From: a virus
Virus record (IMG/VR): IMGVR_UViG_3300023242_000006
Coordinates: 5,476 to 69,475 of that record
Reading direction: 5' to 3' (one strand)
Length of the DNA: 64,000 nucleotides
Under the pieces are notes generated by a model. The model searched no databases, had not been told where the DNA came from, and was given only the letters and a program-made list of their open reading frames with translations. Each line of letters opens with the position of its first letter. Positions within the stretch are counted from its first letter, which is position 1. This document shows positions 1 to 42,877 of this stretch, piece by piece. The position numbers were made by a program, and so were the translations under genes.

Positions 1-152
1 ACTTACTGAACTCCATACTGAACGACTTACTGAATGGTTTACTGAATCCTTTACTGAATATTTTACTGAATTATATACTGAATTATACACTGAATACCTT
101 ACTGACTTACTTATTGAATCGCTTACTTTATCTTTTATTGATTTACTTAGTT

Positions 153-374
153 TCATAGTTTTATTTTTGGTATTAAATTCCTTACTGAACCACTTACTGA
201 ATCCCTTACTGAATTCCAGACTGAATTACTTAGTGAATTACTTACTGAATTATACACTGAATACCATACTGACTTACTTATTGAATCGCTTACTTTATCT
301 TTTATCGATTTACCTAGTATCATAGTTTTATATTTGGTATTGAATTCCTTACTGAACCACTTACTGAAACCCAT
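153..374 (-). CDS. Repeat-array mini-protein (M-x-x-GKSIKDKV N-terminus, then xSVx tetrapeptide repeats, ending IPKIKL)
   Basis: ORF track. The N-terminus is conserved across array members, and the ATG lies in the conserved junction. Confidence 0.5.
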   Translation of the reverse strand: MGFSKWFSKEFNTKYKTMILGKSIKDKVSDSISKSVWYSVYNSVSNSLSNSVWNSVRDSVSGSVRNLIPKIKL

Positions 375-514
375 ACTGAATTACTTACAGAATCATATAC
401 TGAATCATTTACTTTATTACTTACAGAATAAAGTACTTTATCCCTTACTTTATTACTTACTGAATAATATACTGAAGCTCTTACGTTATCTTTTATTGAT
501 TTACTTAGTTTCAT
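320..514 (-). CDS. Repeat-array mini-protein paralog
   Basis: Same MKLSKSIKDNV..SV-repeat architecture. The 5' extension in the ORF track probably overcalls the start. Confidence 0.45.
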   Translation of the reverse strand: MKLSKSIKDNVRASVYYSVSNKVRDKVLYSVSNKVNDSVYDSVSNSVWVSVSGSVRNSIPNIKL

Positions 515-704
515 AGTTTATTTTTGGCATTAAATCCGTTACTGAATTCCTTACTGAATCACTTACTGAATCATGTACTGATTTAAATACTGAATCCCTT
601 ACTGAACGACTTACTGAATCCCTTACTGAATTCCAGACTGAATACCTTACTGAATTATATAGTGAATCCCTTACTTTATTTTTTATCGATTTACCTAGAA
701 TCAT
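501..704 (-). CDS. Repeat-array mini-protein paralog
   Basis: Begins MILGKSIKNKVRDS and carries SVxx repeats. Confidence 0.5.
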   Translation of the reverse strand: MILGKSIKNKVRDSLYNSVRYSVWNSVRDSVSRSVRDSVFKSVHDSVSDSVRNSVTDLMPKINYETK

Positions 705-708
705 AGTT

Positions 709-891
709 TTATTCTTTTATATTTGGTATTGAATCACTTACTGAATCATATACTGAATCCCTTACTGAATACCTTACTGAAACCCATACTGAAGCCCTTA
801 CAGAACCATGTACTGAATTATTTACTGAATTACTTACTGAATACCTTACTGAATCCTTTACTTTATCTTTTATTGATTTACCTATTATCAT
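709..891 (-). CDS. Repeat-array mini-protein paralog
   Basis: Begins MIIGKSIKDKVKDSVRYSV and ends IPNIKE. Confidence 0.5.
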   Translation of the reverse strand: MIIGKSIKDKVKDSVRYSVSNSVNNSVHGSVRASVWVSVRYSVRDSVYDSVSDSIPNIKE

Positions 892-1227
892 AGTTTTATT
901 CTTTTATTTTTGGTACTGAATCACCTACTGAACCCCATACTGAATCACTTACTGAAACCCATACTGAATCCCATACTGAATTATATACTGAATTACTTAC
1001 TGAATTATATACTGAATTACTTATTGAACTGTTTACTTTATCTTTTATCGATTTACCTAGCTTCATTGTTTTATTATTTTATATTTGGTACTGAATTCCT
1101 TACTGATTTCAGTACTGCATCACTTACTGAATACCATACTAAATTCCTTACTAAATTCCTTACTGAATTCCAGACTGAATCCCTTACTGAATTATATAGT
1201 GAATCCCTTACTTTATTTTTTATCGAT

Positions 1228-1515
1228 TTACCTAGTTTCATTGTTTATTTTTGACATTAAATCCCTTACTGAATTATATACTGAATCCCATACTGAATTC
1301 CTTACTTTATCACTTACTGAATTACTTACTGATTTAATCACTGAATCCCTTAATGAATACCTTACTGAACCCCTTACTGAATACCTTACTGAATACCTTA
1401 CTGAATACCATACTGAATCACTTACAGAACCATGTACTGAATTATTTACTGAATTACTTACTGAATACCTTACTGAATCCTTTACTTTATCTTTTATTGA
1501 TTTACCTATTATCAT
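1228..1515 (-). CDS. Repeat-array mini-protein paralog
   Basis: Begins MIIGKSIKDKVKDSV. It is longer because it has more 12-nt repeats. Confidence 0.5.
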   Translation of the reverse strand: MIIGKSIKDKVKDSVRYSVSNSVNNSVHGSVSDSVWYSVRYSVRYSVRGSVRYSLRDSVIKSVSNSVSDKVRNSVWDSVYNSVRDLMSKINNETR

Positions 1516-1730
1516 AGTTTTATATTTGGCGTTGAATTCCTTACTGATTTCATTATTAAATGATTCACTAAATGGTTTACCGAATAGATTATTGAATTAC
1601 TTACTGAATCTCTTACTGAATTCCTTACTGAATTCCTTACTGAATCCCTTACTGAATTCCTTACTGAATTCCTTACTGAACCCCTTATTGAACCCCTTAC
1701 TTTATCTTTTATTGGTTTACCTAGTTTCAT
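1512..1730 (-). CDS. Repeat-array mini-protein paralog
   Basis: Begins MKLGKPIKDKVRGS, with (SVRN)n repeats. Confidence 0.5.
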   Translation of the reverse strand: MKLGKPIKDKVRGSIRGSVRNSVRNSVRDSVRNSVRNSVRDSVSNSIIYSVNHLVNHLIMKSVRNSTPNIKL

Positions 1731-1766
1731 TGTTTATTTTTGGCATTAAATCCGTTACTGAATCCC

Positions 1767-1979
1767 TTACTGAATCCCTTCTGAATTACTTACTGAACAC
1801 CATACTGAATTACTTACTGAACTCCATACTGAATCACTTACTAAATCACGTACTGAATCCCATACTGAATTACTTACAGAATCATATACTGAATCATTTA
1901 CTTTATTACTTACTGAATACCTTGCTGAACCAAATACTGAATCCCTTACTTTATCTTTTATTGATTTACCTACTATCAT
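1767..1979 (-). CDS. Repeat-array mini-protein paralog
   Basis: Begins MIVGKSIKDKVRDSV. Confidence 0.5.
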   Translation of the reverse strand: MIVGKSIKDKVRDSVFGSARYSVSNKVNDSVYDSVSNSVWDSVRDLVSDSVWSSVSNSVWCSVSNSEGIQ

Positions 1980-1983
1980 AGTT

Positions 1984-2178
1984 TTATTCTTTTATTTTTG
2001 GTATTGAATTACTTACTGAACGACTTACTGAATTACTTACTGGAGTCCATACTGAATTCCTTACTGAATTCCTTACTGGAGTCCATACTGAATTCCTTAC
2101 TGAATACCATACTGAATCACTTACTGAATCTCTTACTGAACCCCTTACTTTATCTTTTATTGATTTACCTAGTATCAT
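1984..2178 (-). CDS. Repeat-array mini-protein paralog
   Basis: Begins MILGKSIKDKVRGSV and ends IPKIKE. Confidence 0.5.
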   Translation of the reverse strand: MILGKSIKDKVRGSVRDSVSDSVWYSVRNSVWTPVRNSVRNSVWTPVSNSVSRSVSNSIPKIKE

Positions 2179-2187
2179 TGTTTTAAT

Positions 2188-2232
2188 AAAAAAGTGCAGA
2201 AGGTTATTATTTTTCCCTCTGCACCTAATTTA
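2188..2232 (-). terminator. Rho-independent terminator (stem GGTGCAGAGGG/CCTTCTGCAC followed by a T-run on the minus strand)
   Basis: The inverted repeat gtgcagaagg...ccctctgcac reads on the minus strand as a hairpin followed by TTTTTTATT. It lies directly downstream of gene 2234..2479. Confidence 0.6.
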
Positions 2233-2233
2233 A

Positions 2234-2479
2234 TTAATCTTTTGACTTTTCGTAAACTGCTTTCAAAGGATTGTAAACAACTTGTGTTGTGATTAAACAA
2301 CTTTTCTTTTGTTCTAAAGTTGTGTGATTTTCTGTTGTTAAAACAGACTCACCCTCAACTAAGAACGTTTCATTTACTGCATCAATATCTACTACTTTTT
2401 TAGCGTTTTTGATGAAGTGACCACTTGTACTACTTGGTGCTACATTTACACCCACATTTAATTTTTCCATACTACTCAT
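2234..2479 (-). CDS. Hypothetical protein (unique insert inside the repeat array)
   Basis: Non-repetitive 81-aa ORF between array units, with its own terminator. Confidence 0.5.
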   Translation of the reverse strand: MSSMEKLNVGVNVAPSSTSGHFIKNAKKVVDIDAVNETFLVEGESVLTTENHTTLEQKKSCLITTQVVYNPLKAVYEKSKD

Positions 2480-2762
2480 ATTTATTGTTTAAAATTTTAC
2501 TGAATTACTTATTTTATTTTTAGTATTGAATTACTTACTGAATCCCTTACTTTATCTTTTATTTGTTTACCTAGTTTCATTGTTTATTTACCTAGTATCA
2601 TTATTTTATTTTTGGTATTGAATCATGTACTGAATCATATACTAAATCCCTTACTGAATCACTTACTGAACCCCATACTGAATCATATACTGAATCACTT
2701 ACTGAATTATATACTGAATCCCATACTGAATTACTTACTTTATCTTTTATCGATTTACCGAT
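2480..2762. repeat. Degenerate distal units of the same CTTACTGAAT array
   Basis: Junction motifs recur near 2560, 2590 and 2745 without an intact mini-gene ORF. Confidence 0.7.
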
Positions 2763-2763
2763 A

Positions 2764-3915
2764 TTAAAATTCATAAGTCATTAATTTGAAGTAATCGTTA
2801 CCCGATAAACTAGAGTAACGTTGAAGTTCATCATTACTAAATTCACCATTTTCTAATTTATAGGTAATATCATCATCAAATATAGTTGAAAATTTCTCAC
2901 CTTGTCTACTAATACTAACAATATTATTTTTTAAAATAGTAGGTACTCTGTATAAACTAGCGATAGCATCTTTAGCGGAGTCATAACTTGGCTCAACACC
3001 TAAAAAAAACATTCTATCTGTTGATGGGCAATAACACCTTACATATGCAATATTTACGTCATTTATTTGACCCTTAAATAGTGTGTAAACACCAATTCTG
3101 TTAGACCTAGTTGTACCTTCCAAATATTCATTTTTAGTATCATTCACAAATGAATCAACCTGTTTTAGATTATCTCGCATGAAGTCAAAAACAGCTTCTG
3201 TGCCGTCTCTACTTTCAATGTAAAGTAAAATCATTGACTTGGTTTCTTCGTTCTCTTCCTTAATAAAATCACTAAATGTATACTTTCTATTTTTCAACTT
3301 TAAAAATAAATCAGCATCAACATTTAAACCATTGATAAAATAGCAACCAGTACCATCATTAAATTCAATCGCAAAATCTTCTGTGTTGTGAGGCAATAAA
3401 TTTTCAGAAAGAATGTATTTAGGTGGTTGTACAGCGAAAACAACATTTTCAAATTCAAACGTTTCAAAAACATTTGACTCAATTAATGATTGGTACATAT
3501 TGAACTTTTCATCATTTAACACACCAATCTGTGTGAAATAATCATAAAACGAAATCCAACCAAAATTTGACCACCCAATGTATGAACTTTTCAGCTCTTT
3601 GTTTTCATCCATTTTTTTTAAAAAATCGGATTTTAATTTACTATTTTTATATTTTTCAAAAATAGTTGGGTATTCTGATACATCCATATTAAAATCCTTA
3701 AACATAGTTATTTTAATAATAGCATCAATTATCGAATCACAATAGATAACTTGTGGATTAGGTAAACTAACAAGGTTATTATATAACCAACTTATACCTG
3801 TTTCAAATTTTGATTTGTCAATACCCATTGAGCAATCATTGTAGGCTTTATTTATCCATTTGTCTCTTACTACCAATGTTAACGCCTCTTCTTGTTTTGT
3901 TAATTCTTCTTTCAT
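2764..3915 (-). CDS. Hypothetical protein (383 aa)
   Basis: Long ORF with no recognisable motif. Confidence 0.55.
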   Translation of the reverse strand: MKEELTKQEEALTLVVRDKWINKAYNDCSMGIDKSKFETGISWLYNNLVSLPNPQVIYCDSIIDAIIKITMFKDFNMDVSEYPTIFEKYKNSKLKSDFLKKMDENKELKSSYIGWSNFGWISFYDYFTQIGVLNDEKFNMYQSLIESNVFETFEFENVVFAVQPPKYILSENLLPHNTEDFAIEFNDGTGCYFINGLNVDADLFLKLKNRKYTFSDFIKEENEETKSMILLYIESRDGTEAVFDFMRDNLKQVDSFVNDTKNEYLEGTTRSNRIGVYTLFKGQINDVNIAYVRCYCPSTDRMFFLGVEPSYDSAKDAIASLYRVPTILKNNIVSISRQGEKFSTIFDDDITYKLENGEFSNDELQRYSSLSGNDYFKLMTYEF

Positions 3916-5440: not shown

Positions 5441-5671
5441 TTATTTTGTGTTGCATTTACAGTGTCCCGCATGTGTCATTGAAATTCCATCTCTAACTTT
5501 GGAATAGATATAAGTATGACCTTTGTAGTCAAACTCTTGTATGTCTTCAGCATGTGAAAAAGCACCATTGCTAATTCTTACAGTACCTTTTGTTGGCGTT
5601 TTTTGTTCTACATGAGTTGTTGTTTCACCACACCCAGTTAACCCTAATAGAATGAACAGAACCCAAACCAA
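5441..5671 (-). CDS. Putative lipoprotein
   Basis: Signal peptide with lipobox LGLTGC. Confidence 0.45.
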   Translation of the reverse strand: MVWVLFILLGLTGCGETTTHVEQKTPTKGTVRISNGAFSHAEDIQEFDYKGHTYIYSKVRDGISMTHAGHCKCNTK

Positions 5672-8491: not shown

Positions 8492-8745
8492 TTAATTAAT
8501 TATATTTTCTATGTATTTATAAGTTCTTAGACCTTTTTCACCTTTTTCTATTGCTTGCACCATACCTTTTTTATATGAATACCTTACCCAGTGACCCTTT
8601 GAGTTTGAATATCGTCTTAATTTACCTCTACTATATTCCCATTGTTCAGCTAAATCACCTACAACACGATAAATTAAGTTGCCTTTTTTATCGTAGTTTT
8701 CAAAAGATTTGATTGACCCATTAGAGTATTCAGAAAAGTTTTAAT
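8492..8745 (-). pseudogene. MORN-repeat-like gene fragment with no ATG start
   Basis: The minus frame reads NFSEYSNGSIKSFENYDKKGNLIYRVVGDLAEQWEYSRGKLRRYSNSKGHWVRYSYKKG. It is open but has no in-frame ATG. Confidence 0.35.
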
Positions 8746-8783
8746 AGTGAAATCTTTATAATAGGTTATTTTGTGTGCTACCA

Positions 8784-9194
8784 TTAGAACTTGGGTTCAA
8801 TAACATTTATTGCCGAATATTCCACGTCATCTACTGTGTAATTTTCCACATACGCATAACATTTTCCATCTTTCAAGTTTGATTTGAAACCAAAGAAATC
8901 AAGGATTAAAAGTAAATCATAAGTTTCTGGGGTTTTATCATCTACCGAAACAGAAATATGTCTGCACTCACCGATAGGGTGTACTTCTATTGAATAGGCT
9001 ACACGATACCCCATGGGTAATTCTATTGAATGGTTTGGGTTATTCCCGATAGCATCATCGATTGCTTCTTCACTGTCTACTTTTTGTTGTAGTTCAACCA
9101 TTTTATCATAAGATACCACATGGTTATCTGCATACTCGATAAGAGTTTTGATTTTCTTTTGGACTTCATCGTCCAATAATAATAGCTCTAACAT
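8784..9194 (-). CDS. Hypothetical protein
   Basis: ORF of 136 aa. Confidence 0.5.
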   Translation of the reverse strand: MLELLLLDDEVQKKIKTLIEYADNHVVSYDKMVELQQKVDSEEAIDDAIGNNPNHSIELPMGYRVAYSIEVHPIGECRHISVSVDDKTPETYDLLLILDFFGFKSNLKDGKCYAYVENYTVDDVEYSAINVIEPKF

Positions 9195-9329
9195 ATTTTT
9201 GGTAATAAATTTTTAATAAATGGAAACCAACGTTTTAACCAACAAATTTTCTTTGCTCGTTTATAACCTTCAAGTCTAACTTTATCTTTCACTTCTTCTG
9301 ATGTTTCGGATAAAATACGTTGTGCTGTT

Positions 9330-9995
9330 TTACTTCTCATTATTTTTATTTTTAAGTTCAGATAAAAACCTTTCGATAACAGAACCTCTCGTATCTCCTT
9401 CTTGACGGTCAAACAACATAAAATCCAAAAGAATCTTTCCCAATTCATTTTCGTGATACATTTTAGAGTTGTTTTTAACATGTGGTAATACAACACCTCT
9501 TAAAGATTCTTCTGCTCTTTTTAACGCTTGTGGGAACATTGTTTTACCCTTAAACTTTTCCATTATCTCACTAATACTTTTAGCTTCACCAGTATCAATA
9601 ATAGCCATGTCTTCCAACTCACCACCATTATCTAAGTTAGGGCAACTTTGAATGCGGAACTCGACTTCTTTATCTATTTCAGCTTTGATTTGCCATTTAA
9701 CTTTCTTTGGACTAATATATCTGGATAGATTAGTTTTGGCTAATTCAGCAACGCATGCGTTAACTGATTCTGAAATCTCTGTGTGTAACACTTCAACTTC
9801 AACCAAGTCTTGATAAACTTCAATAACTATGACTTTGGTAAACACATTGTGTTTAACGGCATCACCAGTGTCGTTTTGGTTGAAGTAAGTTAAAACATCA
9901 TGGTAAACACCAATATCACCAACTTGAATATTTTTAATAGACTTTGTTTTTTTACCTAAAAAACTAAAAAACGGTTTTTGGTTATTACTTTGCAT
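9330..9995 (-). CDS. Hypothetical protein (221 aa)
   Basis: The promoter motif at 10016-10025 lies about 20 nt upstream. Confidence 0.55.
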   Translation of the reverse strand: MQSNNQKPFFSFLGKKTKSIKNIQVGDIGVYHDVLTYFNQNDTGDAVKHNVFTKVIVIEVYQDLVEVEVLHTEISESVNACVAELAKTNLSRYISPKKVKWQIKAEIDKEVEFRIQSCPNLDNGGELEDMAIIDTGEAKSISEIMEKFKGKTMFPQALKRAEESLRGVVLPHVKNNSKMYHENELGKILLDFMLFDRQEGDTRGSVIERFLSELKNKNNEK

Positions 9996-10205
9996 AGTTT
10001 GATTTTTTAATTATGACACAAAGGTAAATATAATAAATGATATATCCAAATTTTTACCAATTATTTTTAAATTATTTCACCTCTTTTAATTTCTTCTTCT
10101 CGACCCAAAAGTTCTAGGTCACTTTCAATCCAAGCTCTCACTTGTTTTTTGATGTAATCTTTACTCTCTAATTTCTTTGTTGTTGTAAGGTTTTTTTGTC
10201 ATAAT

Positions 10206-10484
10206 TTACATATAATAAGTTGCTTGTGTATAATAATATTCATTTGGTGTTGGTTGATACAAGTGACCGTCACCAAAATAATTGTTTTTCATGTGATGTT
10301 CGGCTTCAACATAAGACCCAAATGATAATATATTGTAATTACCATTATCACTAGACTTAACCATTCTCCAACCCCAAAAACCTTTGCGTTGTATGTGCCA
10401 AGTCATTTTGGTGAAGTCATGTCTTGATTGCGTTACTATTCTATACTTTTCCATTATTCTGTAAAATAGTTTAAGTTTTCCCAA
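10206..10484 (-). CDS. Hypothetical protein
   Basis: ORF of 92 aa. Confidence 0.45.
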   Translation of the reverse strand: MGKLKLFYRIMEKYRIVTQSRHDFTKMTWHIQRKGFWGWRMVKSSDNGNYNILSFGSYVEAEHHMKNNYFGDGHLYQPTPNEYYYTQATYYM

Positions 10485-10848
10485 AAAATAAGATTATACC
10501 TAATATAGTTAGTACCATAACCATTTGCCAGTAAAAGGTTTGTAGTAAGCTAAACCTAAAGCCAAGATGATACGCAAAGGTATATGTCCAGTAATACCAG
10601 TTAAAACCCATATAAATGCCATTACCAATGATAATAATACATAATAGATAACTGCGTTGATAAAGAATTTTTTCATATATTTGTTTTTACTTGTTAATAA
10701 TAATTCCGAAAGAAAGGCAGCCGATAACAACATATACCCAAAAAAGGGGCTTTAGTGCTATGTTCAAGTTCGGTGCTTCGATTATACATTTTGTTTAAAT
10801 TGAGAGTTTTGTGCTTCGATTTCCCCTTCTTCGGGTATATGCCAAGCG

Positions 10849-11232
10849 TTATCGGCAACTGCTACCGACACGTTCAAAATGAAACTTTCCATCCCATAAA
10901 GTGTGCTTAATTGACCCCATATTAATTGCTACTTGCATTTTCGTTTTGCTTTTAAATAAGTATTCAAGTTTTTCATTCAGCATTTTATTGAGCTGAATTC
11001 TATAACCTTCTAAATCTGTATGGCACTTGTAATTATTGCAATCTTTACAACTTGGGTTAAGGTTTTCCAACTCATTACTACCTCCAAAAACTTGTGGTTT
11101 AATATGGTCAACATTCCAGCCTTTGAGTAAATCAACTCCACAATAAGCACACTTACCATTGCACTTATCAAAGACTATTACTCTAATTTTGGCTTTTGAG
11201 TTCATTTTATTTTGATTTGTGAAGAAGGGCAT
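10849..11232 (-). CDS. HNH endonuclease
   Basis: CAYCGVDL...WNVDHIKPQVFGGSNELENLNPSCKDCNNYK is the classic HNH/McrA-type motif. Confidence 0.75.
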   Translation of the reverse strand: MPFFTNQNKMNSKAKIRVIVFDKCNGKCAYCGVDLLKGWNVDHIKPQVFGGSNELENLNPSCKDCNNYKCHTDLEGYRIQLNKMLNEKLEYLFKSKTKMQVAINMGSIKHTLWDGKFHFERVGSSCR

Positions 11233-11371
11233 CCGCTAACAAATGCTATACAATATGTCGGGTGACGTGCTTCGATTAAAAAATTGTGGTTAATTCAACT
11301 TTGGTGCTTCGTATTAACTTTTGCGGTAAAAACCGACACATCGTATAGCACCGATAAGGTTATATGCTATT

Positions 11372-11611
11372 TTAATAGACAGCACGTTTAACGAATCCGA
11401 AAATATCGACAGATGTTCTAACCATCATTTCTTTATCGTATTTTACACGAAACAAAATATTGTCTTTATATCTTTTTATTTTCATTGTTTTTGCGCATTT
11501 TTTAGAACATCTTGTTCTATTAATATTTGTTTCGTATTCAACGCCACAACATTCACATTTAGACTTTTTAAAGTCGATATTTCCTTTGTATTTATTTATT
11601 AAATATTTCAT
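11372..11611 (-). CDS. Zinc-ribbon small protein
   Basis: CECCGVEY...CSKKC. Confidence 0.4.
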   Translation of the reverse strand: MKYLINKYKGNIDFKKSKCECCGVEYETNINRTRCSKKCAKTMKIKRYKDNILFRVKYDKEMMVRTSVDIFGFVKRAVY

Positions 11612-11778
11612 TTTGTTTATAATTTAGGAAAGAAAAACAGCGTATAACAGCGTGTATAAAAAATGGCGGGTTCAGTGCTATTTAGAAACATTTGTGCTAT
11701 ATTCAACGCATTGCTTTCAAGTTAATTTTGTGCTTTAATTCCGCCACTTCTCATACACGCCACCCTTTAGTGGCAAAG

Positions 11779-12006
11779 CTAACCGATGTATTTCCTGACA
11801 AAGTATTGGTCACGATTACAAAACTCCGTTCTATGAGAATTTAGACCATCCCCATAAGCATCTGTTATTTGTTCAGCCTCTGTAAGTAAAAGGCTTTTAG
11901 CTTCATTAATCGCAATATTTATCACTCTATGATACAAAGGGTCATTATCCCATTTTTCTTTGGCTCCTTCGAGCCTTTTTATTAGTTGATTTAACGGAGT
12001 TTCCAT
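11779..12006 (-). CDS. Hypothetical small protein
   Basis: ORF of 75 aa. Confidence 0.4.
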   Translation of the reverse strand: METPLNQLIKRLEGAKEKWDNDPLYHRVINIAINEAKSLLLTEAEQITDAYGDGLNSHRTEFCNRDQYFVRKYIG

Positions 12007-12131
12007 TTCGTTTTTAAATTAAATTTAGTGCTGATAATCCGCCCAGCACATAACAGCGTGTATAAAAAATGGCGTTCGTAATTAATTTTTAAAAACGATA
12101 AACTTGCTATATATGGTATTTATATGATAGC

Positions 12132-12380
12132 TTAACGCCACTTGGTACTAAATTGAATACCTCCTTTTGTTTTTCTGCCATTTTTATATTCTTTTACAAT
12201 TATTGTAGGTCTTTCTAATGCTCTGCCACTAAATCCAGAAAGCCTATTTTTATAATTTAATTTTTGAACCCTAATTGCTTCTTTTTCAATTTCTTCTTTT
12301 GTTGCATCATCATGTATATCGAAGTATTCCCAGCCGTAAGAAGATTGTCCAAAATTTTGTGTGATTTGAAATTTTTTCAT
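12132..12380 (-). CDS. Hypothetical small protein
   Basis: ORF of 82 aa. Confidence 0.4.
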   Translation of the reverse strand: MKKFQITQNFGQSSYGWEYFDIHDDATKEEIEKEAIRVQKLNYKNRLSGFSGRALERPTIIVKEYKNGRKTKGGIQFSTKWR

Positions 12381-12448
12381 AATTTTGTTTTTTAATTTTT
12401 AAAAACTATAAACTTGCTATATCTGGTAGTTATAGTGCATTAATTTGC

Positions 12449-12688
12449 CTAACTATCTGTATGCCATTTGTGGCAAGGCTCACATAAATTGTCTCGGTAT
12501 TCTTTTGTAGGTTTGTCACAATCTCGGCAAACAAACGGCACAATAACAACGGGTATAGTTAATTGCTCTCTTTTGCCTTTTAAATAAGCCTCTTCCATTG
12601 CATCAAGTACATCGTCCCTTAATCTACTTTGTTCATTAAACCCATCTGTCTCTTCTTGTAATATACTTAGTAAGTTTGTTCTTGTCAT
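12449..12688 (-). CDS. Cys-rich small protein
   Basis: CRDCDKPTKEYRDNLCEPCHKW. Confidence 0.4.
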   Translation of the reverse strand: MTRTNLLSILQEETDGFNEQSRLRDDVLDAMEEAYLKGKREQLTIPVVIVPFVCRDCDKPTKEYRDNLCEPCHKWHTDS

Positions 12689-12744
12689 TTTAATTTAATT
12701 TAGTGTTATTAATCCGCAACTAACCATACCCAAAGCGTTAGCAA

Positions 12745-12951
12745 CTATTTAAAATTTGCTTTATAATCAGTTGTATCTATTTTAATCAAGTGGTAAGCCT
12801 CACTTGTTTTTCCATTGCCTTCGAGTCTATACATTACTCCATCTGTATCTTTTACTATTTTACCGTCTTTTTCGTAAGTGCATCCTACTAAAAACACAGT
12901 TGCTAACAATGTATAAAATGCATAGCTTAATTTCGTTCTTAAATTTTTCAT
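12745..12951 (-). CDS. Putative lipoprotein
   Basis: Lipobox LVGCTY. Confidence 0.4.
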   Translation of the reverse strand: MKNLRTKLSYAFYTLLATVFLVGCTYEKDGKIVKDTDGVMYRLEGNGKTSEAYHLIKIDTTDYKANFK

Positions 12952-13051
12952 TTGTTGTATTTTTAAAGTTTATTAATTAATTCAAAGTTTTGTGTTGTTT
13001 AGGTTGCTACGCACCTTATACAATCGTTATCACTCAGCTTAGAAGTAATAG

Positions 13052-13273
13052 CTAAAGAATTGCAATATATTTTTTAACTTCATTCCAATATTTAAAATTT
13101 AATCTATCACTATCATAAATATTTGGATTGTCGTTTATTATTTCTTCGACTGCAATTTGTGCATATTTTTTAGCCATTTCTAGTTCAACTATATGCTCAT
13201 CTTTGGTTTTTTCAAAAACATTTCCTCTATACATTTTGTTTGCTAATTCATTAGCTTTTTTAATTGGTGTCAT
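13052..13273 (-). CDS. Hypothetical small protein
   Basis: ORF of 73 aa. Confidence 0.4.
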   Translation of the reverse strand: MTPIKKANELANKMYRGNVFEKTKDEHIVELEMAKKYAQIAVEEIINDNPNIYDSDRLNFKYWNEVKKYIAIL

Positions 13274-13441
13274 AATATTTTTGTATTTAAAAGCCGAAGT
13301 GATAACATACGCTAACCGCTATTTAGGCTTTTGGTTTAATTTAATAATTGTTTTGTGTCTGTAAGTATTTGTAATAATCTGAAAATTTAGGCTTACTTTT
13401 CCCTAAACATCGTATAGCACCGATAAGGTTAGCGGTAATTT

Positions 13442-13729
13442 TTAGAACGCTTGAAGAATATAACCATTGTATAAGCGTTTTGTTTCAGCTAATTGACTAC
13501 GTTCGTCTTCTGTACATTCATTCCAATGTTCCGCTTCATTATCATTGTGTTTTTGGTCATATTTGTTGATAGGTACTTTGACAATAAGTGTTTTGTCTTT
13601 ATTAACAAACACACGTCTGGTCAATCCAGTGTTCTTGTAGGTAAAGGCTTCACCATTTACAAATATAACATCAGCTGTAGATTCTACGGTAGCCGTTTTA
13701 ATGTTAACTATGTGTTCTATTCTACTCAT
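13442..13729 (-). CDS. Hypothetical protein (start at MSRIEH, 2 nt downstream of the promoter motif)
   Basis: ORF 13442..13831 trimmed. The N-terminal extension in the track is a translation of the terminator-promoter cassette. Confidence 0.5.
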   Translation of the reverse strand: MSRIEHIVNIKTATVESTADVIFVNGEAFTYKNTGLTRRVFVNKDKTLIVKVPINKYDQKHNDNEAEHWNECTEDERSQLAETKRLYNGYILQAF

Positions 13730-13731
13730 GG

Positions 13732-13790
13732 TACAAAGGTATAAAATAAAAATGACACTACCAAAAGATAATGTCATTATTTTTAATTTA
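13732..13790 (-). promoter_or_regulatory. Terminator-promoter cassette, copy 2
   Basis: TACAAAGGTAtaaaataaaaaTGACACTAccaaaagaTAATGTCAttattttt. Confidence 0.6.
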
Positions 13791-16286: not shown

Positions 16287-16327
16287 ATATTATACAATTA
16301 AAAGTTCGTATATCTAGTAGTTAGCGG

Positions 16328-16825
16328 TCAGGCTATGACAGACACCACGTTTTCAAAATTAACATAAGTATGACCTTTCCCTTTTTCACAACCTTGACCT
16401 TCGTGCCAAAAACCATACTGCATAGTTTCAGGGTATAGTTTGACAATTTCGCCTTCAAATTCACCTTTACGAACCAATTTTGCTATTACTTTTTGACCTT
16501 CAATCAAATCAAGTTTAAACTCATTTTCAGCAACCCATTTTTTAATAAATGTTTCTTGAACGTTGCTTCTATCGTAAGAAACGCTATCAAGAATTTCTAC
16601 TAATTCGCTATCAGGAGCAAAACCTTCGTCCTCAAACTCTTTTGCAAGTTCATAGCCATCATCGTTGCTGTGCCATTGAAGTATTTTTTCAGCAGTTTCA
16701 ATACAATCTTCTAATGGTGTTTCATCGTTACACCATTCGTTTACTTGCTTTCCTACAATTTTAGCAAGTTCTTTTACCATTTCATCGTTCCAAGTTGGAC
16801 GAGTTGTTGTTAATGTTTCTGACAT
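16328..16825 (-). CDS. Hypothetical protein (165 aa)
   Basis: ORF. Confidence 0.5.
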   Translation of the reverse strand: MSETLTTTRPTWNDEMVKELAKIVGKQVNEWCNDETPLEDCIETAEKILQWHSNDDGYELAKEFEDEGFAPDSELVEILDSVSYDRSNVQETFIKKWVAENEFKLDLIEGQKVIAKLVRKGEFEGEIVKLYPETMQYGFWHEGQGCEKGKGHTYVNFENVVSVIA

Positions 16826-17359
16826 TTTCTTGTTATTTATTTGTGGACTTCTAAAAGCGGAGAAGCCCGAACCGCTAACAGCACCTACAATAAATTGGGG
16901 GTTCTGTGGTAACTTGTATCTTTGTTCTTCGCATCAAGTGTAGTGGTTCAATGAATTTTTCTGCTCCGAAATCCCCAACTTCTTGTAGCTGCATTCCGTT
17001 ATGTGTAAGTGTTACATTCATACTTCTAATCAACAATTTTCGCATCTTTTAATATACTTTCTCTAAAATATAATTCGTTTCCATGACATAACTTCTCAGT
17101 TTTCCAATCAAAAAGTTCCCTTTGCCCTCCCAGTCTTTTTATCTCAGGAAATTCTTGATTCAAATCCTCTATTCTTTTTTTTAGAAAATCAATTCGTTCA
17201 TCAAATTGACATTTAATCTCTTTTGTAATTGTAATACCTTTCATCTTATTTAATATTTTAGTTTAATTAACCCCAGTAGTTATATGCAATGCTACGTTTG
17301 TGCTTCGTATTAAGTTTCGTGGTTATAATCTTTTTGTTTTATTTTTCTATCACACAAAA

Positions 17360-17929
17360 TTAAGAAATCATTTTAATTTGTTTTGAATTTAATACAACAT
17401 ACACATTAGATACGTTTGCATCTTTACCATACCCAACACCATCATGTACATTTTTAATAATAACCCCATCAAAACCATATTTAATTGCTATTTCAGGTGT
17501 TCTATTTGTTGTTATCCTATCAACCCCATGTTTTAACAAATACTTAATCGCATCTTCACTATTTTCTATACCTTCTACTGAAATATAATCCCAAGATTCA
17601 AAATTAGCATCCACTATTAATGGTTTAACTATTTTAAGATATACATCATATATTATTTTTTCACCATTTTCTTTTTTAGAACGATGTGTTGCATATTTAT
17701 CAGCTAGATTAATATCAGTAGTAAAATATGCATATTGATTTTCACTTGTTCTGAATGAATCAAATTTATTATTTGTGCCATGATAAACTATTAATGGATT
17801 CCCATTTTTATCAACAACTTTACTATTACCAAACCATTCTCGAAAATTATCATTCAAATTGTTATTAATTGTTTTCTGTTCATTTAAATATTCACGTATA
17901 GTCGTTGCTATAAATTTCCTTAGTTCCAT
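17360..17929 (-). CDS. Hypothetical protein (189 aa). I suspect an ADP-ribosyltransferase-like fold but cannot confirm it
   Basis: VYHGT..F...YFTTD..ESWDY..EGIENSE segments. This is a weak impression only. Confidence 0.3.
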   Translation of the reverse strand: MELRKFIATTIREYLNEQKTINNNLNDNFREWFGNSKVVDKNGNPLIVYHGTNNKFDSFRTSENQYAYFTTDINLADKYATHRSKKENGEKIIYDVYLKIVKPLIVDANFESWDYISVEGIENSEDAIKYLLKHGVDRITTNRTPEIAIKYGFDGVIIKNVHDGVGYGKDANVSNVYVVLNSKQIKMIS

Positions 17930-18066
17930 AATGATAAATAGTTTAATCTATATATAAATAGTCACTTTTTAATTTTCCACCCAGAAAAATAAAACAAAAG
18001 GGTTCAGTTCTCCGATTAAACATTCCACCTTAATAATCCACACCTACACATAATAAGGTGTATAAT

Positions 18067-29210: not shown

Positions 29211-29504
29211 TTAGTTTAATTTTTTTTCAAAGTCTTTTTCTATTTGTACCATAACCACTTCTTTAAATGCTTGGTTTATTATTTTAGAATCAACACCAAA
29301 AATTTTACATAACTGTATTTCTACATCCCAAAGATAAGTATTTTTATCTGATTCTATTTCTTTGATACTAAAGTCATGGGCCAAAGGAAAACTTTTTCCT
29401 TTGGCCCTATCAGCATATATTCTGTAAACAACATAATGCTTGTCAATATATTTTTTGACAAGCATCACATTAAAAATATCTTCTTTACTATTAATCAAGT
29501 TCAT
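29211..29504 (-). CDS. Hypothetical protein
   Basis: ORF of 97 aa. Confidence 0.4.
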   Translation of the reverse strand: MNLINSKEDIFNVMLVKKYIDKHYVVYRIYADRAKGKSFPLAHDFSIKEIESDKNTYLWDVEIQLCKIFGVDSKIINQAFKEVVMVQIEKDFEKKLN

Positions 29505-30369
29505 TGTAAGCTAAAAGAACTCTAGGGTTTCTTCTCAATACGTTAAGTGATTTTTCACGTACTTGACGTACTCTTTCACGAGTTATCCCCATTCTATCAC
29601 CAACTTCATTAAGAGTCATAGGATTATTACCATTCAACCCAAATAAACATTCCATGATTTCCCTATCTCTTAAAGATAAAACACCAAGAATTGAGTTTAT
29701 TTCATCAATTAAATTTGAATCATTCAATATATGGTCAGTTGCTTTAAATGAATTATCAGCAATCAATTCACCTAACGCTGAACCACCATCATCGTTACCA
29801 ACTTGACGGTCCAATGAATCCATATTATATGTGCTTAATACATCTAAAAACAGGAAATCTTCATCGTTCATTTCGTTACCAAACTCTTCCATTACTTCTT
29901 GAACATCTACTTTACGACCTTTTATTTGTTCAAGTTCAGCAATCTTTTTATTTAACTTAGATAAGCTATTCAATTTATTTGCTGGAATACGAACCATCGT
30001 ACCATTCTTTGCGATGTGTTCTAGAATTATTTTTCTGACCCACCATACAGCATATGAAATAAATTTATAACCCATACTTGGTGTGAATTTCTCAGCAGCA
30101 ATAACTAATCCGATATTACCTTCATTTACTAAGTCTTCCAATGCTATACCATTACTAACATATTGTTTAGCAACTGACACAACAAAACGTAAATTTTTTT
30201 GAACTAATTCATTTATGGCTTTTTCATCACCTAAACTTGCTCTTTCACTAACAGCAAATTCTTCTTCTGGGGATGAGAACAAAGGAACACTCCCAATTTC
30301 TTTTAAATATTGTTTGAAAGATTCATTCTCTCTATTGGTAAGTTTGTACGAAATTTTTAATTGCTTCAT
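29491..30369 (-). CDS. RNA polymerase sigma-70 family factor (regions 2-4)
   Basis: Region 4 HTH LNEVGDRMGITRERVRQVREKSLNVLR. Region 2 FISYAVWWVRKII. About 290 aa. Confidence 0.8.
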   Translation of the reverse strand: MKQLKISYKLTNRENESFKQYLKEIGSVPLFSSPEEEFAVSERASLGDEKAINELVQKNLRFVVSVAKQYVSNGIALEDLVNEGNIGLVIAAEKFTPSMGYKFISYAVWWVRKIILEHIAKNGTMVRIPANKLNSLSKLNKKIAELEQIKGRKVDVQEVMEEFGNEMNDEDFLFLDVLSTYNMDSLDRQVGNDDGGSALGELIADNSFKATDHILNDSNLIDEINSILGVLSLRDREIMECLFGLNGNNPMTLNEVGDRMGITRERVRQVREKSLNVLRRNPRVLLAYNELD

Positions 30370-31159: not shown

Positions 31160-31318
31160 ATGAAAAAAGACAAATTATCACCAAAAGAGAGAAAACAAAC
31201 CATAAGTATCCAGATTCCTAATGAATTAATAATTCATTTAGATGTAATTAATAATAAGAGTAAATTCTTCGAATGGTTATTAATTGAACATTTTAACACT
31301 TTAAAAAATGGAAAATAA
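31160..31318 (+). CDS. Ribbon-helix-helix-like small protein; overlaps the start of the downstream endonuclease gene
   Basis: ..KQTISIQIPNELIIHLD.. Its stop overlaps the ATG at 31308. Confidence 0.4.
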   Translation: MKKDKLSPKERKQTISIQIPNELIIHLDVINNKSKFFEWLLIEHFNTLKNGK

Positions 31319-32258
31319 AACTGAAAATTTTATTTCAAAAGCTAAATTAATACATGGTGATAAATATGATTATTCAAAAGTTAACTATATTAATAAAAGA
31401 ACTAACGTTAAAATAATTTGTTCTGAACATGGTGTTTTTGAACAATTAGTACATAACCATTTAAAAGGTAATGGTTGTATTAAATGTTCTGGAAAAGGTT
31501 TAACTAATGAAGAATTTATTAATAAATGTAATATAGTTCATAAAAATAAATTTAATTATTCATTGGTAGATTATAAAAATTGTTATGAAAAAATTAAAAT
31601 AATTTGCCCAATACATGATAAATTTGAACAAACACCAAGTTCTCATATTAGTGGTGTTGGTTGTTGGAAGTGTTTTAATGAGGATAGAACCACATCAAAT
31701 AATGAGTTCATATTAAAAGCCGAAAAAGTTCATAGCGATAAATATAATTATTCTAAAATTATTTATTTAAATAGTAAAGTTAATATCACAATTATTTGTC
31801 CAATACATGGTGACTTTGAACAAACACCTAATATGCATTTAAAAGGTTGTGGTTGCCGTAAATGTGGTTATATAACGGTGTCTAAAAAAGCAATTAATAA
31901 TTCACATAGTTTTTCACTATCAAGTTGGAAAAATATTATATCTAAAAACATAAAGGCTAAACCAATGTTATATATTATTAAATGTTATAATGATACTGAA
32001 GAATTCATTAAAATAGGTATAACAATAAACAACTTAAAAGGAAGATACCCTAGTAATAAACATATGCCTTATAAATATGATATAATATTAACACATGAAG
32101 CTGAACCAGAATTAGTGTTTAACATAGAAAAAGCGTTACACAGGTATTTTAAAAAAATTAAATACACCCCGACTATAAAATTCCATGGTATGGGTGAGTG
32201 TTATTATATAAAAGATAAACCAGAAATTTTAAACTATTGTAATAAACAATTAAATTAA
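31308..32258 (+). CDS. Putative homing endonuclease: three zinc-ribbon repeats plus a C-terminal T5orf172 (GIY-YIG-like) domain
   Basis: The repeat [10 protein letters not shown]..IICxxHGxFEQxPxxHLKGxGCxKC occurs three times. C-terminus [18 protein letters not shown].......YDIIL.HEA....[11 protein letters not shown]. It sits on the plus strand, opposite to all its neighbours. Confidence 0.6.
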
Positions 32259-35123: not shown

Positions 35124-35225
35124 TGGTACATCGTATAGGAATCGAACCTATGTTACCGCAAGCGATTGGTACTTAATCTTCCGATGTGCTCTCATTTCGG
35201 CATTCTACCATTAAACTAACGATAT
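35124..35225 (-). tRNA. tRNA-like element A (encodes CCA; good T-arm; about 98 nt if the distal 5' acceptor strand is used, or a 60-nt minimal form)
   Basis: 3' end ..ATAGGTTCGATTCCTAT-ACGATGT-ACCA. Complementary 5' strands are ACATCGG at 35181-35187 or ATATCGT at 35219-35225. Confidence 0.45.
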
Positions 35226-35408: not shown

Positions 35409-35505
35409 ACTATCACTATGTCGCTCGGCAAAGTTAAACGTGATAGAAAGGATTATAACCGTCTGAAAGTTTGCCGACCTTCATGTTGCTATTCCCCAAT
35501 TTTGT

Positions 35506-35603
35506 GCGAGAGGGTGGACTCGAACCACCGACACCCAGTCCCTAGTTGTTCCCTTGTACTTCGGGCTAAAGACCTTAGCGTTTACCACTTCGCCACTCTC
35601 GCA
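35506..35603 (-). tRNA. tRNA-like element C (98 nt): perfect 7-bp acceptor stem GCGAGAG/CTCTCGC, 3-bp D-stem, good T-arm, but no canonical anticodon stem
   Basis: GCGAGAG-TG-GCGAAGTGGTAAACGC-...48 nt...-GGTGGTTCGAGTCCACC-CTCTCGC-A. Confidence 0.45.
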
Positions 35604-38992: not shown

Positions 38993-39802
38993 TTAAAAAT
39001 TTGATGGAAGATTAACAGTCGGAAAACTGTTCCCATAATTGTTTCTCATTAGTGTTCTTTCAGATGCGTCAATCACAGCAGTTTCATACCACTCGTCATA
39101 CATCTTAACAATAAATTTATGGTGATATTCGTTCTCATTCTTGAACTGACTCAATAATTTTTCTCTACTCAAAGGTCCATGACCAATCCAAGTAACAACC
39201 CAATTTCTAGAACCTAAAGTGATAACTAATTGAGTTAAAAAGTCTTTCATCTTATCACCAATAACAGTATTGGCGTACCACTCGTTTAAATGGTCCAAAG
39301 CATATTGATAAATTTTTGGTGTTTCAAAAGTAAGTTTCTCAGAGATTGTTTCTACTAAAGCTTGACTACCAGCTTCAACATGAAAACTTTTTAATATTTT
39401 TTTCAATTGTGAGTCAATCACTGTTTCTTTGTAGTAATCATTGAAATAGTTCTCGATGAACTCACCATTATATAAATCTTTATCATTCCCATGACTAAAT
39501 CTATTAACAGCTTTAAAAAGTAGTTTAACACTACCCTCAGACATATCTAATGTCTCTAAATACTCTGTAAGTTTTTTTGTTAATATACGCTTATGAAAAC
39601 CAAACCATTTATGGAATAATTCAACACTAGTTTCGTTATCGATGGTTATAAAATAGCCAAAGATAGTCTTAAAAGTAACCAAAAATTCATTCGGTGTGGT
39701 ACTGGTATAATTATCTTTTTCAACCACTTTAAAATAAACGTAATCAGTAATTACTCTGTAGTTTTTTTCTAAGAAATCGGTTATTAATTTTTCATCAGTC
39801 AT
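38993..39802 (-). CDS. Hypothetical protein (269 aa)
   Basis: ORF. Confidence 0.5.
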   Translation of the reverse strand: MTDEKLITDFLEKNYRVITDYVYFKVVEKDNYTSTTPNEFLVTFKTIFGYFITIDNETSVELFHKWFGFHKRILTKKLTEYLETLDMSEGSVKLLFKAVNRFSHGNDKDLYNGEFIENYFNDYYKETVIDSQLKKILKSFHVEAGSQALVETISEKLTFETPKIYQYALDHLNEWYANTVIGDKMKDFLTQLVITLGSRNWVVTWIGHGPLSREKLLSQFKNENEYHHKFIVKMYDEWYETAVIDASERTLMRNNYGNSFPTVNLPSNF

Positions 39803-41964: not shown

Positions 41965-42126
41965 ATGAAAAAACAAGACAAACGAATTCTTCTAAATATT
42001 GATGGGGAATTAAAAACAGAATTTACAAAAAAATGTGATGATAACCATATGAAAATATCAGCCAGAATAAAATATTTAATTAGATTAGATGTAGAAAATA
42101 AAATAATTATTAAAAATGGAAACTAA
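41965..42126 (+). CDS. Ribbon-helix-helix (CopG/Arc-like) protein; overlaps the downstream HNH gene start by 11 nt
   Basis: ILLNIDGELKTEFTKKCDDNHMKISARIKYLI. Confidence 0.5.
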   Translation: MKKQDKRILLNIDGELKTEFTKKCDDNHMKISARIKYLIRLDVENKIIIKNGN

Positions 42127-42877
42127 AGTATGTAAAAAATGTTCAATAGATAAACCAATATCTAATTTTAGTGTAGCTAAAGATAATAGAGACGGTTTAA
42201 ATAATATATGTAAAAAATGTAAATGTGAATATAGTAAAAATTACACATTAAATAATTTTAATGAAATTTCAATAAAAAGAAAAAAATTTTATAATATTAA
42301 TAAAGATAGATTATTAAATCCAGAAACCTATGTTTTAATACATAATAAAATTTGTAGTGTTTGTAATGATGATAAAGCTATTTGTGAATTTAATAAAAAT
42401 AAAAAAAGTAATGATGGGTATAGAGCAGATTGTAAAATTTGTCAAGCTAAAAAAGGTAAAATATATCGGCTAAATAATGTTGATAAATTAAAACAATATC
42501 GTTTAGATAATAAAAATAATATAAACCAATATAGAAAAAATAAAAAACAAACTGATATTAATTATAAAATAACCTGTAATTTAAGAACTAGACTTTGGTC
42601 AGCTATTAAAAACGAATATAAATCTGGTTCAGCAGTAAGTGATTTAGGTTGTAGTATTGAATATTTTAAAAACTATATTGAATTAAAATTTGAAGATAAA
42701 ATGTCTTGGGATACTTGGGGTCGTGATACTTGGCATTTAGACCATGTAAAACCATTATCATCGTTTAATTTATCTAATAGGGAAGAATTTTTAATAGCTG
42801 TTAATTATAAAAACATTAAACCAATGTGGTGTAAAGATAATTTAAGTAAAGGTGGGGTGAAAAATGTTCATGCTTAG
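42116..42877 (+). CDS. HNH homing endonuclease
   Basis: Cys-rich N-terminus with C-terminal WHLDHVKPLSS...N...PMWCKDNLSKG. It lies on the plus strand amid minus-strand genes. Confidence 0.7.
   Translation: METKVCKKCSIDKPISNFSVAKDNRDGLNNICKKCKCEYSKNYTLNNFNEISIKRKKFYNINKDRLLNPETYVLIHNKICSVCNDDKAICEFNKNKKSNDGYRADCKICQAKKGKIYRLNNVDKLKQYRLDNKNNINQYRKNKKQTDINYKITCNLRTRLWSAIKNEYKSGSAVSDLGCSIEYFKNYIELKFEDKMSWDTWGRDTWHLDHVKPLSSFNLSNREEFLIAVNYKNIKPMWCKDNLSKGGVKNVHA

Follow-up and report, generated by a model that had tools for sequence, protein, structure and literature searches.

The window analyzed here is a 64,000-nt stretch of a virus record (IMG/VR IMGVR_UViG_3300023242_000006, positions 5,476 to 69,475), in which the minus strand carries every gene from 9 to 19 kb. 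Between 10.1 and 13.4 kb it holds a block of small open reading frames (ORFs) of 73, 68, 79, 82, 75, 79, 118, 55, and 82 amino acids (aa), separated by unusually long spacers of 56–169 nt. Nearly every gene of the block is preceded, on the gene strand, by an element of about 150 nt. Read in that direction, the element consists of ten variable bases and TAAC (N10-TAAC), 6 nt, a 17–19 bp stem that includes a conserved G·T wobble, a loop of about 70 nt, the return stem, 2 nt, and GTTA with ten further variable bases (GTTA-N10). In our judgment the block is very probably a cluster of attC sites lacking an integron integrase (CALIN), that is, an array of gene cassettes whose attC-type sites belong to a family of Bacteroidota integrons and whose ORFs lie on the strand that folds.

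Three spacers of about 165 nt (10680–10848, 11209–11371, and 11612–11778) each contain an 18–20 bp long-range inverted repeat whose arms, different in sequence from one spacer to the next, are 71–73 nt apart, with a loop bearing three (A/G)AGCAC motifs and then TGTTA. Folding of the three with RNAfold gave z of about −2.9 on the minus strand, compared with −0.5 to −1.2 on the plus strand, and the seven stem mismatches counted by eye in the window spacers are all G·U on the gene strand. The loop itself (for instance, 10750–10822, 11262–11332, and 11670–11740) comprises three direct repeats of about 19 nt, AAGCAC-AAA-nGTTnAAT, which are conserved in phage and bacterial copies and each hold a GTT-core-like sequence. 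The integron site attI1 carries the accessory integrase sites DR1 and DR2, which these loop repeats recall. A covariance model (CM) was built from an alignment (A5) of 42 copies, four of them from the window, and run over the whole window with filters off. Six significant copies were returned, all within two segments that have no counterpart in the close relative L001; nothing else in the window was significant, nothing was found in the relatives L001, L007, L002, and L004, and the model also gave two weak fragments in the window.

The elements alternate with the genes, all on the minus strand, and are described here from the upstream end of the block. Element A (13290–13448), a copy outside model training, scores 51.1 bits (E 3e-9); its TAAC lies at 13428–13431 and its GTTA at 13303–13306, its 5′ arm resembles that of a widespread “type 1” element, and its stem is degenerate. 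It precedes gene A (13052–13273; 73 aa), which matches phrog_21441, of unknown function. Element B (12881–13046; 42.1 bits, E 3e-7), also outside model training and recovered by the stem scan, has TAAC at 13026–13029, arms at 13007–13021 and 12911–12925 that form 15 bp with no mismatch, and GTTA at 12904–12907; the ATG of gene B (12745–12951; 68 aa) lies inside its loop. Ahead of gene C (12449–12688; 79 aa, two CxxC pairs) is a stemless remnant, a weak match at 12698–12757 (15.4 bits, E 0.16, with 113 model positions deleted) that reads TAACG (12737–12740), 12 nt, and GTTAG (12721–12724), its inner hairpin gone. The spacer upstream of gene D (upD, 12381–12448) is a 5′ half-site without a return arm, comprising TATAAC at 12429–12432 and repeat D9 at 12392–12434; copies of D9, 93% identical and 310 nt apart, lie on both sides of gene D (12132–12380; 82 aa, phrog_30540). 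The spacer upstream of gene E (11779–12006; 75 aa) is a hybrid carrying repeats D6 and D9 (upE, 12007–12131), in which the 5′ half of D9 (12082–12124) is joined to a 3′ arm and TGTTA (12044–12074) of the type found upstream of gene F.

Element F (upF, 11622–11786; 113.5 bits; z −2.9 on the minus and −0.5 on the plus strand) has arms at 11741–11760 and 11650–11669 that pair over 20 bp with three G·U, and GTTA at 11645–11648, its 5′ core having degenerated to TAAA (11766–11769); it is followed by gene F (11372–11611; 79 aa), with a CxxC zinc-ribbon-like pattern. Element G (11214–11379; 127 bits), with TAAC at 11359–11362, arms at 11333–11350 and 11244–11261, and GTTA at 11237–11240, is 84–88% identical to the type 1 element and matches about 45 loci by blastn. 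Gene G (10849–11205; 118 aa) encodes an HNH endonuclease (Pfam HNH, 1.5e-10; PHROG 2118, 8e-31), and the TAA of its stop codon is the TAA of the next TAAC core. That core (10848–10851) belongs to element H (10702–10868; 134.5 bits), with arms at 10823–10841 and 10731–10749 and GTTA at 10725–10728, the outer arms of which, CCGATAAC and GTTATCGG, pair in place. Beyond the block, a further element occupies a second variable locus (16853–17018; 119.9 bits; also found by nhmmer, at 16853–17008, and by the stem scan), with TAAC at 16998–17001, arms at 16974–16988 and 16885–16899, and GTTA at 16876–16879. A loop-only fragment at 17260–17331 (repeat D3) is a weak CM match (15 bits, E 0.19).

An earlier, sequence-only reading of this DNA had described four families of intergenic repeats in the block, and exact searching and repeat finding bear out their existence. 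GTGCTTCG occurs at 10773, 10811, 11267, 11304, and 17300 (previously placed at about 10770, 10825, 11260, 11305, and 17305, the last being the loop-only fragment), CATCGTATAGCACCGATAAGGTTA at 11339 and 13408 (previously 11341 and 13396), TAACAGCGTGTATAAAAAATGGCG at 11645 and 12051 (previously 11654 and 12048), and AAAAC(G/T)ATAAACTTGCTATAT(A/C)TGGTA at 12092 and 12402 (previously 12093 and 12402). What did not survive is the view of these families as separate motifs, as all are pieces of the one element of about 150 nt: GTGCTTCG is its loop repeat, CATCGTATAGCACCGATAAGGTTA is TAAC with the spacer and 5′ arm, TAACAGCGTGTATAAAAAATGGCG is the 3′ arm with TGTTA, and AAAAC(G/T)ATAAACTTGCTATAT(A/C)TGGTA is the 5′ half of another site type. 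Exact 24-mers recur inside the 64 kb far above chance, and the density of GTGCT in the block is about 8 times that of the remaining window. The HNH endonuclease named in that reading is supported by the only Pfam match in the block; two more block ORFs match PHROGs of unknown function. Its zinc-ribbon label for genes C and F reflects CxxC pairs seen by eye only, and its lipoprotein label for gene B a signal peptide and Cys, likewise by eye only, such that gene B encodes a putative lipoprotein.

The stem of the element is kept by compensatory change, and its pairing distinctly favors one strand. RNAalifold finds a 17-pair stem across the 42 aligned copies, with compensatory changes in 14 pairs (about 14–15). 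In the viral and window set 91.4% of cells are paired, as against 62.8% in shuffles and 40–49% with slid partners, and both sides have changed in 179 cells compared with 58 in shuffles. A hand tally of the pair table for the 42 copies yields 91 G·U against 6 A·C, with one stem position being G·U in 41 of the 42, and the TAAC-G and T-GTTA columns of the same alignment are invariant or at least 90% conserved. Among 33 bacterial copies that did not contribute to the model, 96.0% of cells are paired and the wobble is G·U in 32/32. In the bacterial arrays mRNA is made from the opposite strand, so retention of the wobble there favors single-stranded DNA, and not RNA, as the molecule that folds.

The family extends well beyond the window. 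A scan of viral contigs for the pattern CGAAGCAC-N(15-45)-AATCGAAGCAC found 72 loci, with identical spacing in 41 of 94 matched stretches, and a hidden Markov model made from those stretches (nhmmer) recovered 95 copies on about 45 contigs, at densities of up to 7 per approximately 7 kb. The ORFs that follow the viral elements are diverse (60–250 aa), and several are DNA methyltransferase-like by their N-terminal motifs. The Pfam families listed for 150 large array-neighbor ORFs include N6_N4_Mtase (6), C-5 DNA methylase (4), Mom (4), and MT-A70 (2), as well as ERF, YqaJ, HNH, and GIY-YIG. A blastn search with the type 1 consensus against 50,697 GenBank phages gave no match, and an exact 24-mer scan of the viral contigs gave no hit. 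Polaribacter phage P12002L (L080) holds several element copies, including a long-loop one at 39100–39252; a short-loop spacer at 29974–30077 of the same locus is P12002L_attC1, which the CM matches weakly (E 0.13). P12002L_attC1 has been published as a predicted attC site (PMC9892861).

A scan of one genome per species placed the element in about 23 loci, nearly all of them in Bacteroidota, among these being Flavobacterium macacae, Brumimicrobium oceani, a Flavobacteriaceae metagenome-assembled genome (MAG), and a Bacteroidia MAG chromosome in which copies span at least 4.344–4.384 Mb. The CM finds 33 copies in 72 kb of these bacterial loci. Their orientation is the canonical one, with the ORF opposite to the element strand and followed by its site, in 12 of 13 decisive cases. 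In the window and viral contigs, by contrast, the ORF lies on the element strand with the site before it in 21/22 decisive cases, the reverse of the canonical attC order. The bacterial cargo (a PemK toxin, GNAT, an HpaII restriction-modification pair, and an AraC regulator) is typical of integrons. In a Flavobacterium MAG contig (L088, 1259–4669) the HpaII-type pair is present as one cassette between two elements (C-5 methylase, 6e-103; RE_HpaII, 1e-144); in phage arrays, by contrast, orphan methyltransferases abound. In F. macacae (L130), a 415-aa tyrosine recombinase adjoins the array (Phage_integrase, 4.5e-35; Phage_int_SAM_4, 6e-15); it scores 210 bits with the NCBIfam model “site-specific tyrosine recombinase/integron integrase” (cut-off 220) and 180 bits with the integron integrase model TIGR02249 (cut-off 265). 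The window sites are homologous to those bounding mobile cassettes on bacterial chromosomes.

The same cassette units turn up in different surroundings, with their limits at the AAC/GTT core. A 722-nt GNAT cassette is 99.1–99.9% identical in F. macacae (L130, 1265–1986), B. oceani, and the Flavobacteriaceae MAG, with further coordinates of L102 6808–7529 and L114 7417–8000; its limits are G/TTAGCGG and ..AAACG/TTA (slash, boundary), and its near-identity points to recent movement between three genera. The viral loci L031 and L034 share one segment only, of 641 nt at 95% identity, which carries a methyltransferase ORF, begins just past the TAAC of one element, and ends with the TAACG of the following one. 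Complementarity was scored out of 10 between arm F, the ten variable bases before TAAC, and arm T, the ten after GTTA. Within one element, F and T score 5.3 in viral and 5.4 in genome loci, compared with 5.2 for random pairs. Across the ORF, T and the F of the next element score 7.1 in viral loci (n = 19, p = 0.001), with many pairs at 9–10, and 7.6 in bacterial genome loci (n = 25, p = 0.0003). Such complementarity across the ORF is expected if both cassette ends derive from one site in a circular intermediate. For the window cassettes the across-ORF scores are 7 (A), 9 (B), and 5 (G), and 9 for F with its anchor set by hand.

Comparison with relatives illustrates how variable this part of the genome is. 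L001 is collinear with the window, both flanks being 93–97% identical by blastn, yet the window-specific array (10696–13443, minus strand) has no counterpart in L001 or in L157. The equivalent place in L001 is taken up by four unrelated genes in close succession and a TACCTTTGTA box, and L157 (about 80% identity) has L001-type genes there. Gene K, which borders the array upstream, encodes 95 aa in the window and 146 aa in both L001 and L157; its stop lies where the array begins, and the array takes the place of the C-terminal 50 or so codons of gene K together with several conserved genes. With full-length gene K and the L001-type genes present in both relatives and the window copy of gene K cut at the array, the array is the derived state. 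In seven metagenome relatives of gene K homology ends at 13444–13446 in every case, and the long-loop element is in none of the seven. The suggestion from the sequence-only reading that the region is hypervariable is thereby upheld, the more so as the second variable locus (16324–18049) carries the same element. Were the spacers folded sites of cassette exchange, a stretch that differs between otherwise near-identical phages would be explained.

The second variable locus provides a closer look at a junction. Here, a cassette with a 165-aa gene (16328–16825) occupies 16320–16998 on the minus strand and ends in ..AGCCTGACCGCTAAC at 16320–16334. The window reads ..AGCCTGACCGCTAAC joined to TACTAGATATACG, the corresponding junction in L001 reads ..GTATTGTACATAAC joined to TACTGGATATACG, and homology between the two resumes at TAAC 16320–16323. 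As judged from the two sequences, this is what cassette exchange at the core would leave. L001 has its own small cassette at this locus (L001 3195–3400), bounded by TAAC cores, ..AATGCTAAC/GGTTTG.. and ..TACATAAC/TACTGG..; the hairpin inside it is short, with poor pairing, and its start codon, ATG, shares bases with the GTTA core.

Several observations weigh against an integron-type array, and should be set beside this evidence. A tyrosine recombinase is absent among ten window ORFs of 253–461 aa that were scanned singly (two others in the same size range, 2764–3915 and 58916–59728, were covered by a grouped scan only) and among the Pfam families, at most 25 per list, given for 53 window ORFs and the 150 array-neighbor ORFs; the search covered the 64-kb window, which is part of the phage genome. 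Nor were the adjacent integrase IntI, attI site, and cassette promoter Pc of a complete integron found in the window, and the families listed include no IntI near viral arrays. The F. macacae recombinase falls under the curated cut-offs of both integron-integrase models, and its nearest solved relatives are XerC-like, XerA, and then IntI4. The only member of the family to have been assayed, P12002L_attC1, was the sole failure among six sites with IntI1 × attI1 (PMC9892861). Within the element the RYYYAAC/GTTRRRY consensus is satisfied at AAC and GTT alone, and bulged extrahelical bases were not seen in the stem. Two of the window cores are TAAA (upF and upE), and upD and upE are half-sites; together, the half-sites and mutated cores suggest that part of the array is probably decaying. 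The outer junctions of the main array (13443/13444 and 10695/10696) lie away from cores; the block as a whole was not brought in by a clean site-specific event. Lastly, in the sample examined, phage and bacterial arrays share no cargo gene, with only distant methyltransferase similarity between them.

Phage genomes offer a precedent for shuffling of a different kind. Promoter early stem-loop (PeSL) cassettes are promoter-plus-terminator units of about 50–60 bp in T4-type phages that are exchanged by homologous recombination (PMC2839356, PMC4122927). If the window elements were PeSL-like promoter/terminator modules upstream of accessory genes, with genes reshuffled by homologous recombination (for example, by phage ERF/YqaJ), then it would be natural that they stand upstream of ORFs, ahead of a T-rich stretch and then an A-rich leader, that they mark indels between near-identical phages, that array-bearing contigs encode ERF, YqaJ, and NinG with no integrase seen there, and that the outer junctions of the main array are off cores. 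We nevertheless regard this account as unlikely. No TAnnTTTG or recognizable promoter was seen by eye in the elements, and no U-run directly follows the stem, the 3′ arm being followed by NN-TGTTA and 10 nt before the T-rich run. Moreover, the bacterial arrays have the same family downstream of, and antisense to, their genes; AAC/GTT cores remain invariant while stems covary; shared units end at the core; and complementarity of arms across the ORF is unexpected under homologous recombination. A role as RNA structures in a polycistronic transcript, whether as RNase III processing sites or as stabilizers that keep the small mRNAs apart and intact, with loop repeats bound by an RNA-binding protein, would likewise suit some features of the phage copies: stems of 17–20 bp fold only on the sense strand in phages and their mismatches are all G·U, the elements lie between co-oriented genes without a promoter box, and the phage encodes RNA-handling proteins. 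In bacteria, however, the genes are on the other strand, and yet the wobble is kept in 32/32 copies and 96% of cells are paired, where an mRNA would have A·C mismatches. The invariant AAC/GTT and the cassette boundaries are left unexplained by an RNA, and no Rfam family matches, so that as the primary explanation this is very unlikely; an added, secondary RNA role in phages may exist.

Scattered transposon ends, such as miniature inverted-repeat transposable elements (MITEs) in intergenic DNA, could account for inverted repeats of 18–20 bp around a short core present in many copies on unrelated contigs. The arms, though, vary among copies and do so in concert, whereas a transposase binding site would be conserved; target-site duplications are absent, the flanks being inverted (TAAC, GTTA) and not direct; the G·T asymmetry is strand-specific; and the copies form regular arrays with one per gene. 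Transposon ends are, to our minds, a scarcely credible source. All three alternatives fit less well than a CALIN, as they leave unexplained the cores, the complementarity across ORFs, and a structure maintained on the same strand in bacteria, where that strand is not transcribed. Some simpler candidates were also set aside. The resemblance of TTCGA to tRNA remnants is superficial, and tRNA scans found nothing in the block. The spacing of AGCAC motifs at about 20 and about 40 nt, as in an operator or iteron array for a DNA-binding protein, is real, but does not explain covarying stems and cores. Intrinsic terminators were dropped for want of a U-run after the stem, and RNase III sites and PeSLs were rejected as the primary role on the evidence already given. 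Rfam searches likewise returned nothing in the block, whether of the whole window at the gathering threshold or of 10.0–13.6 kb at E ≤ 1.

For the CALIN reading, one can envisage that cassettes enter and leave by recombination of a folded single strand at TAA/C (G/TT on the other strand), and that recombination would occur during infection, catalyzed by a host IntI/Xer-like tyrosine recombinase or by some phage enzyme. The orientation of attC relative to replication sets the ease with which it folds (PMC5371416). Cumulative GC skew falls across the whole window, a trend that would fit, weakly, a folded strand serving as template for the lagging strand.

Transcription of the array can be considered on similar terms. 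The sequence-only reading correctly observed that the phage-wide promoter box, TACAAAGGTA, is missing from the block: in gene orientation there is no copy between those at 10026 and 13732 (absent 10027–13731). TACAAAGGTA is the reverse complement of TACCTTTGTA. The −7 box of Bacteroidota sigma-A is TAnnTTTG, and TACCTTTGTA fits it. The window has 22 exact copies of TACAAAGGTA, and 36 with one mismatch allowed, compared with 9.7 expected. At the window-wide density a box-free 3.7 kb is unremarkable alone (P about 0.2), and gaps of 5–6 kb occur elsewhere. Nearest upstream of the array is the TACCTTTGTA box at 13732–13741, which together with gene K occupies 13442–13741 on the minus strand; it is the likely source of read-through transcription into the array, which would be transcribed in this manner. 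No TAnnTTTG box or other recognizable promoter was seen in the elements or the family consensus on reading the sequence by eye. Nothing computed backs the proposal that the block is a separately regulated, perhaps early, region; its repeats are parts of a structured family of recombination sites. That the same family lies opposite to the gene strand in bacterial integron arrays argues against a primary role of the repeats as promoters or operators. The TACCTTTGTA box adjoins the ATG of gene K (TACCTTTGTACC-ATG; 13728–13741), a sequence arrangement that suggests a leaderless or near-leaderless mRNA for that gene. At 10017–10026, the distance from box to ATG is 22 nt.

The cargo of the window has few relatives. 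Gene D has a homologous ORF, with 60% identity, in Flavobacterium phage MaF61, where the neighbors of that ORF are tightly packed and the element is absent. An exact-protein look-up for gene D found only a near-identical 3-kb fragment, L005, and one for the HNH gene found no match; among the loci examined, the window cargo genes have no relatives besides those in L005 and MaF61. Neither megablast of 9–19 kb nor tblastn of a 1052-aa protein gave a match among the 50,697 GenBank phages.

Sedentary chromosomal integrons, for example the arrays of Vibrio cholerae repeats (VCRs), offer a general comparison. As in VCR-type arrays, the sites are more than 100 nt long and mutually similar within an array, AAC/GTT cores are kept and structure is conserved above sequence, boundaries fall at G/TT and cassette ends are complementary, and genes for toxin-antitoxin systems and acetyltransferases are among the cargo of the homologous Bacteroidota arrays. 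The window differs from them in showing no integrase, attI, or Pc and in having its ORFs inverted relative to the site; its spacers are asymmetric (6 and 2 nt), no bulged bases were seen, and its R-box complementarity extends to about 14 nt. The RNase III hairpins between early genes of phage T7 span about 60 nt, contain an internal loop, and lack conserved cores at their flanks. Like the window elements, they are long duplexes in the spacers of co-transcribed small genes without internal promoters; unlike them, the element here is conserved on the non-coding strand in bacteria. PeSLs are the closest functional analog among phage shuffling modules: they too are repeated stem-loop modules beside small ORFans in hyperplastic regions and mark insertions, deletions, and replacements between close relatives, and in both cases gene plus element can be pictured as a mini-circle. 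They differ in that here no promoter was seen, cores are invariant, stems covary, and the family is shared with bacterial integrons.

CALINs with methyltransferase cargo have been described in virulent phages (Qi et al. 2023, PMC9892861), and the window array resembles these integrase-less arrays of folded sites between small accessory genes, often DNA methyltransferases, of lytic phages. P12002L_attC1 has the same layout of TAAC, 6 nt, stem, loop, stem, 2 nt, and TGTTA, but a loop of 11 nt in place of the roughly 70 nt with three conserved direct repeats found here. The earlier study predicted only two P12002L sites and noted their “divergent directions” (PMC9892861); here, the ORFs are placed on the folded strand, and members of the family are located in about 45 viral contigs as well as in chromosomal arrays. 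In an incomplete search of the literature we found no description of this Bacteroidota attC family, its loop repeats, or the strand reversal in phages.

A broader proposal is offered tentatively, and we would put it at somewhat less than an even chance. Bacteroidota phages may keep an integron-type cassette pool of their own, which would use the attC family of the host and presumably its IntI/Xer-like recombinase, with the ORF placed on the strand that recombines. Unrelated phages would trade cassettes, for example those with orphan methyltransferases, HNH nucleases, or small ORFans, through site-specific recombination between folded single strands of DNA during infection, and the loop repeats would act as accessory sites at which the recombinase binds. 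Should this be so, the site would double as the upstream region of the gene, and the phage pool would be the mirror-image counterpart of the bacterial one. In either event, the elements suggest a concrete mechanism, open to testing, behind the “hyperplastic” regions of small genes found across a large group of environmental phages, by which accessory and anti-restriction genes could move singly between unrelated phages. They define an attC family of Bacteroidota, of about 150 nt, marked by a near-invariant G·T, spacers of unequal length, and a loop that is both large and conserved, and the reversal of strand between phages and bacteria is relevant to the coupling of attC folding with replication and transcription (PMC5371416). 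In annotation, such repeats should not be labeled promoters or noncoding RNAs.

Other features of the phage and its relative were recorded in passing. In L001, a 391-aa ORF (8527–9702, minus strand of the locus) interrupts the homolog of window gene 9330–9995, the window copy of which is intact; with a C-terminal CxxC..CxxC, it looks like a TnpB of the IS605 family. The window ORFs include a sigma-70 family protein with regions 1.2, 2, and 4 (for example, 29491–30369), and the phage also encodes SmpB, IF3, an RNB-type exoribonuclease, NAMPT/NAPRTase, Sir2, NADAR, NUDIX, an ART-PolyVal ADP-ribosyltransferase, and HAD RNA-repair domains. A GC-rich patch (0.42 compared with about 0.31) contains two tRNA-like genes of 99 nt, at 35127–35225 and 35505–35602; they score 43.5 and 41.8 bits as Rfam tRNA, and for the one that it calls ARAGORN gives a 4-base anticodon. 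The pair may be intron-bearing or otherwise unusual tRNAs. Three ORFs (31308–32258, 42116–42877, and 43842–44486) are on the plus strand, opposite almost all other genes; the first two sit in 1-kb windows of 22% GC and the third at about 31% GC, and the first has a T5orf172 domain. All three may be inserted mobile nuclease genes. Finally, the first 2,700 nt of the window (1–2700) are internally repetitive, giving dozens of overlapping blastn alignments of 65–80% identity to L001 15179–16533.

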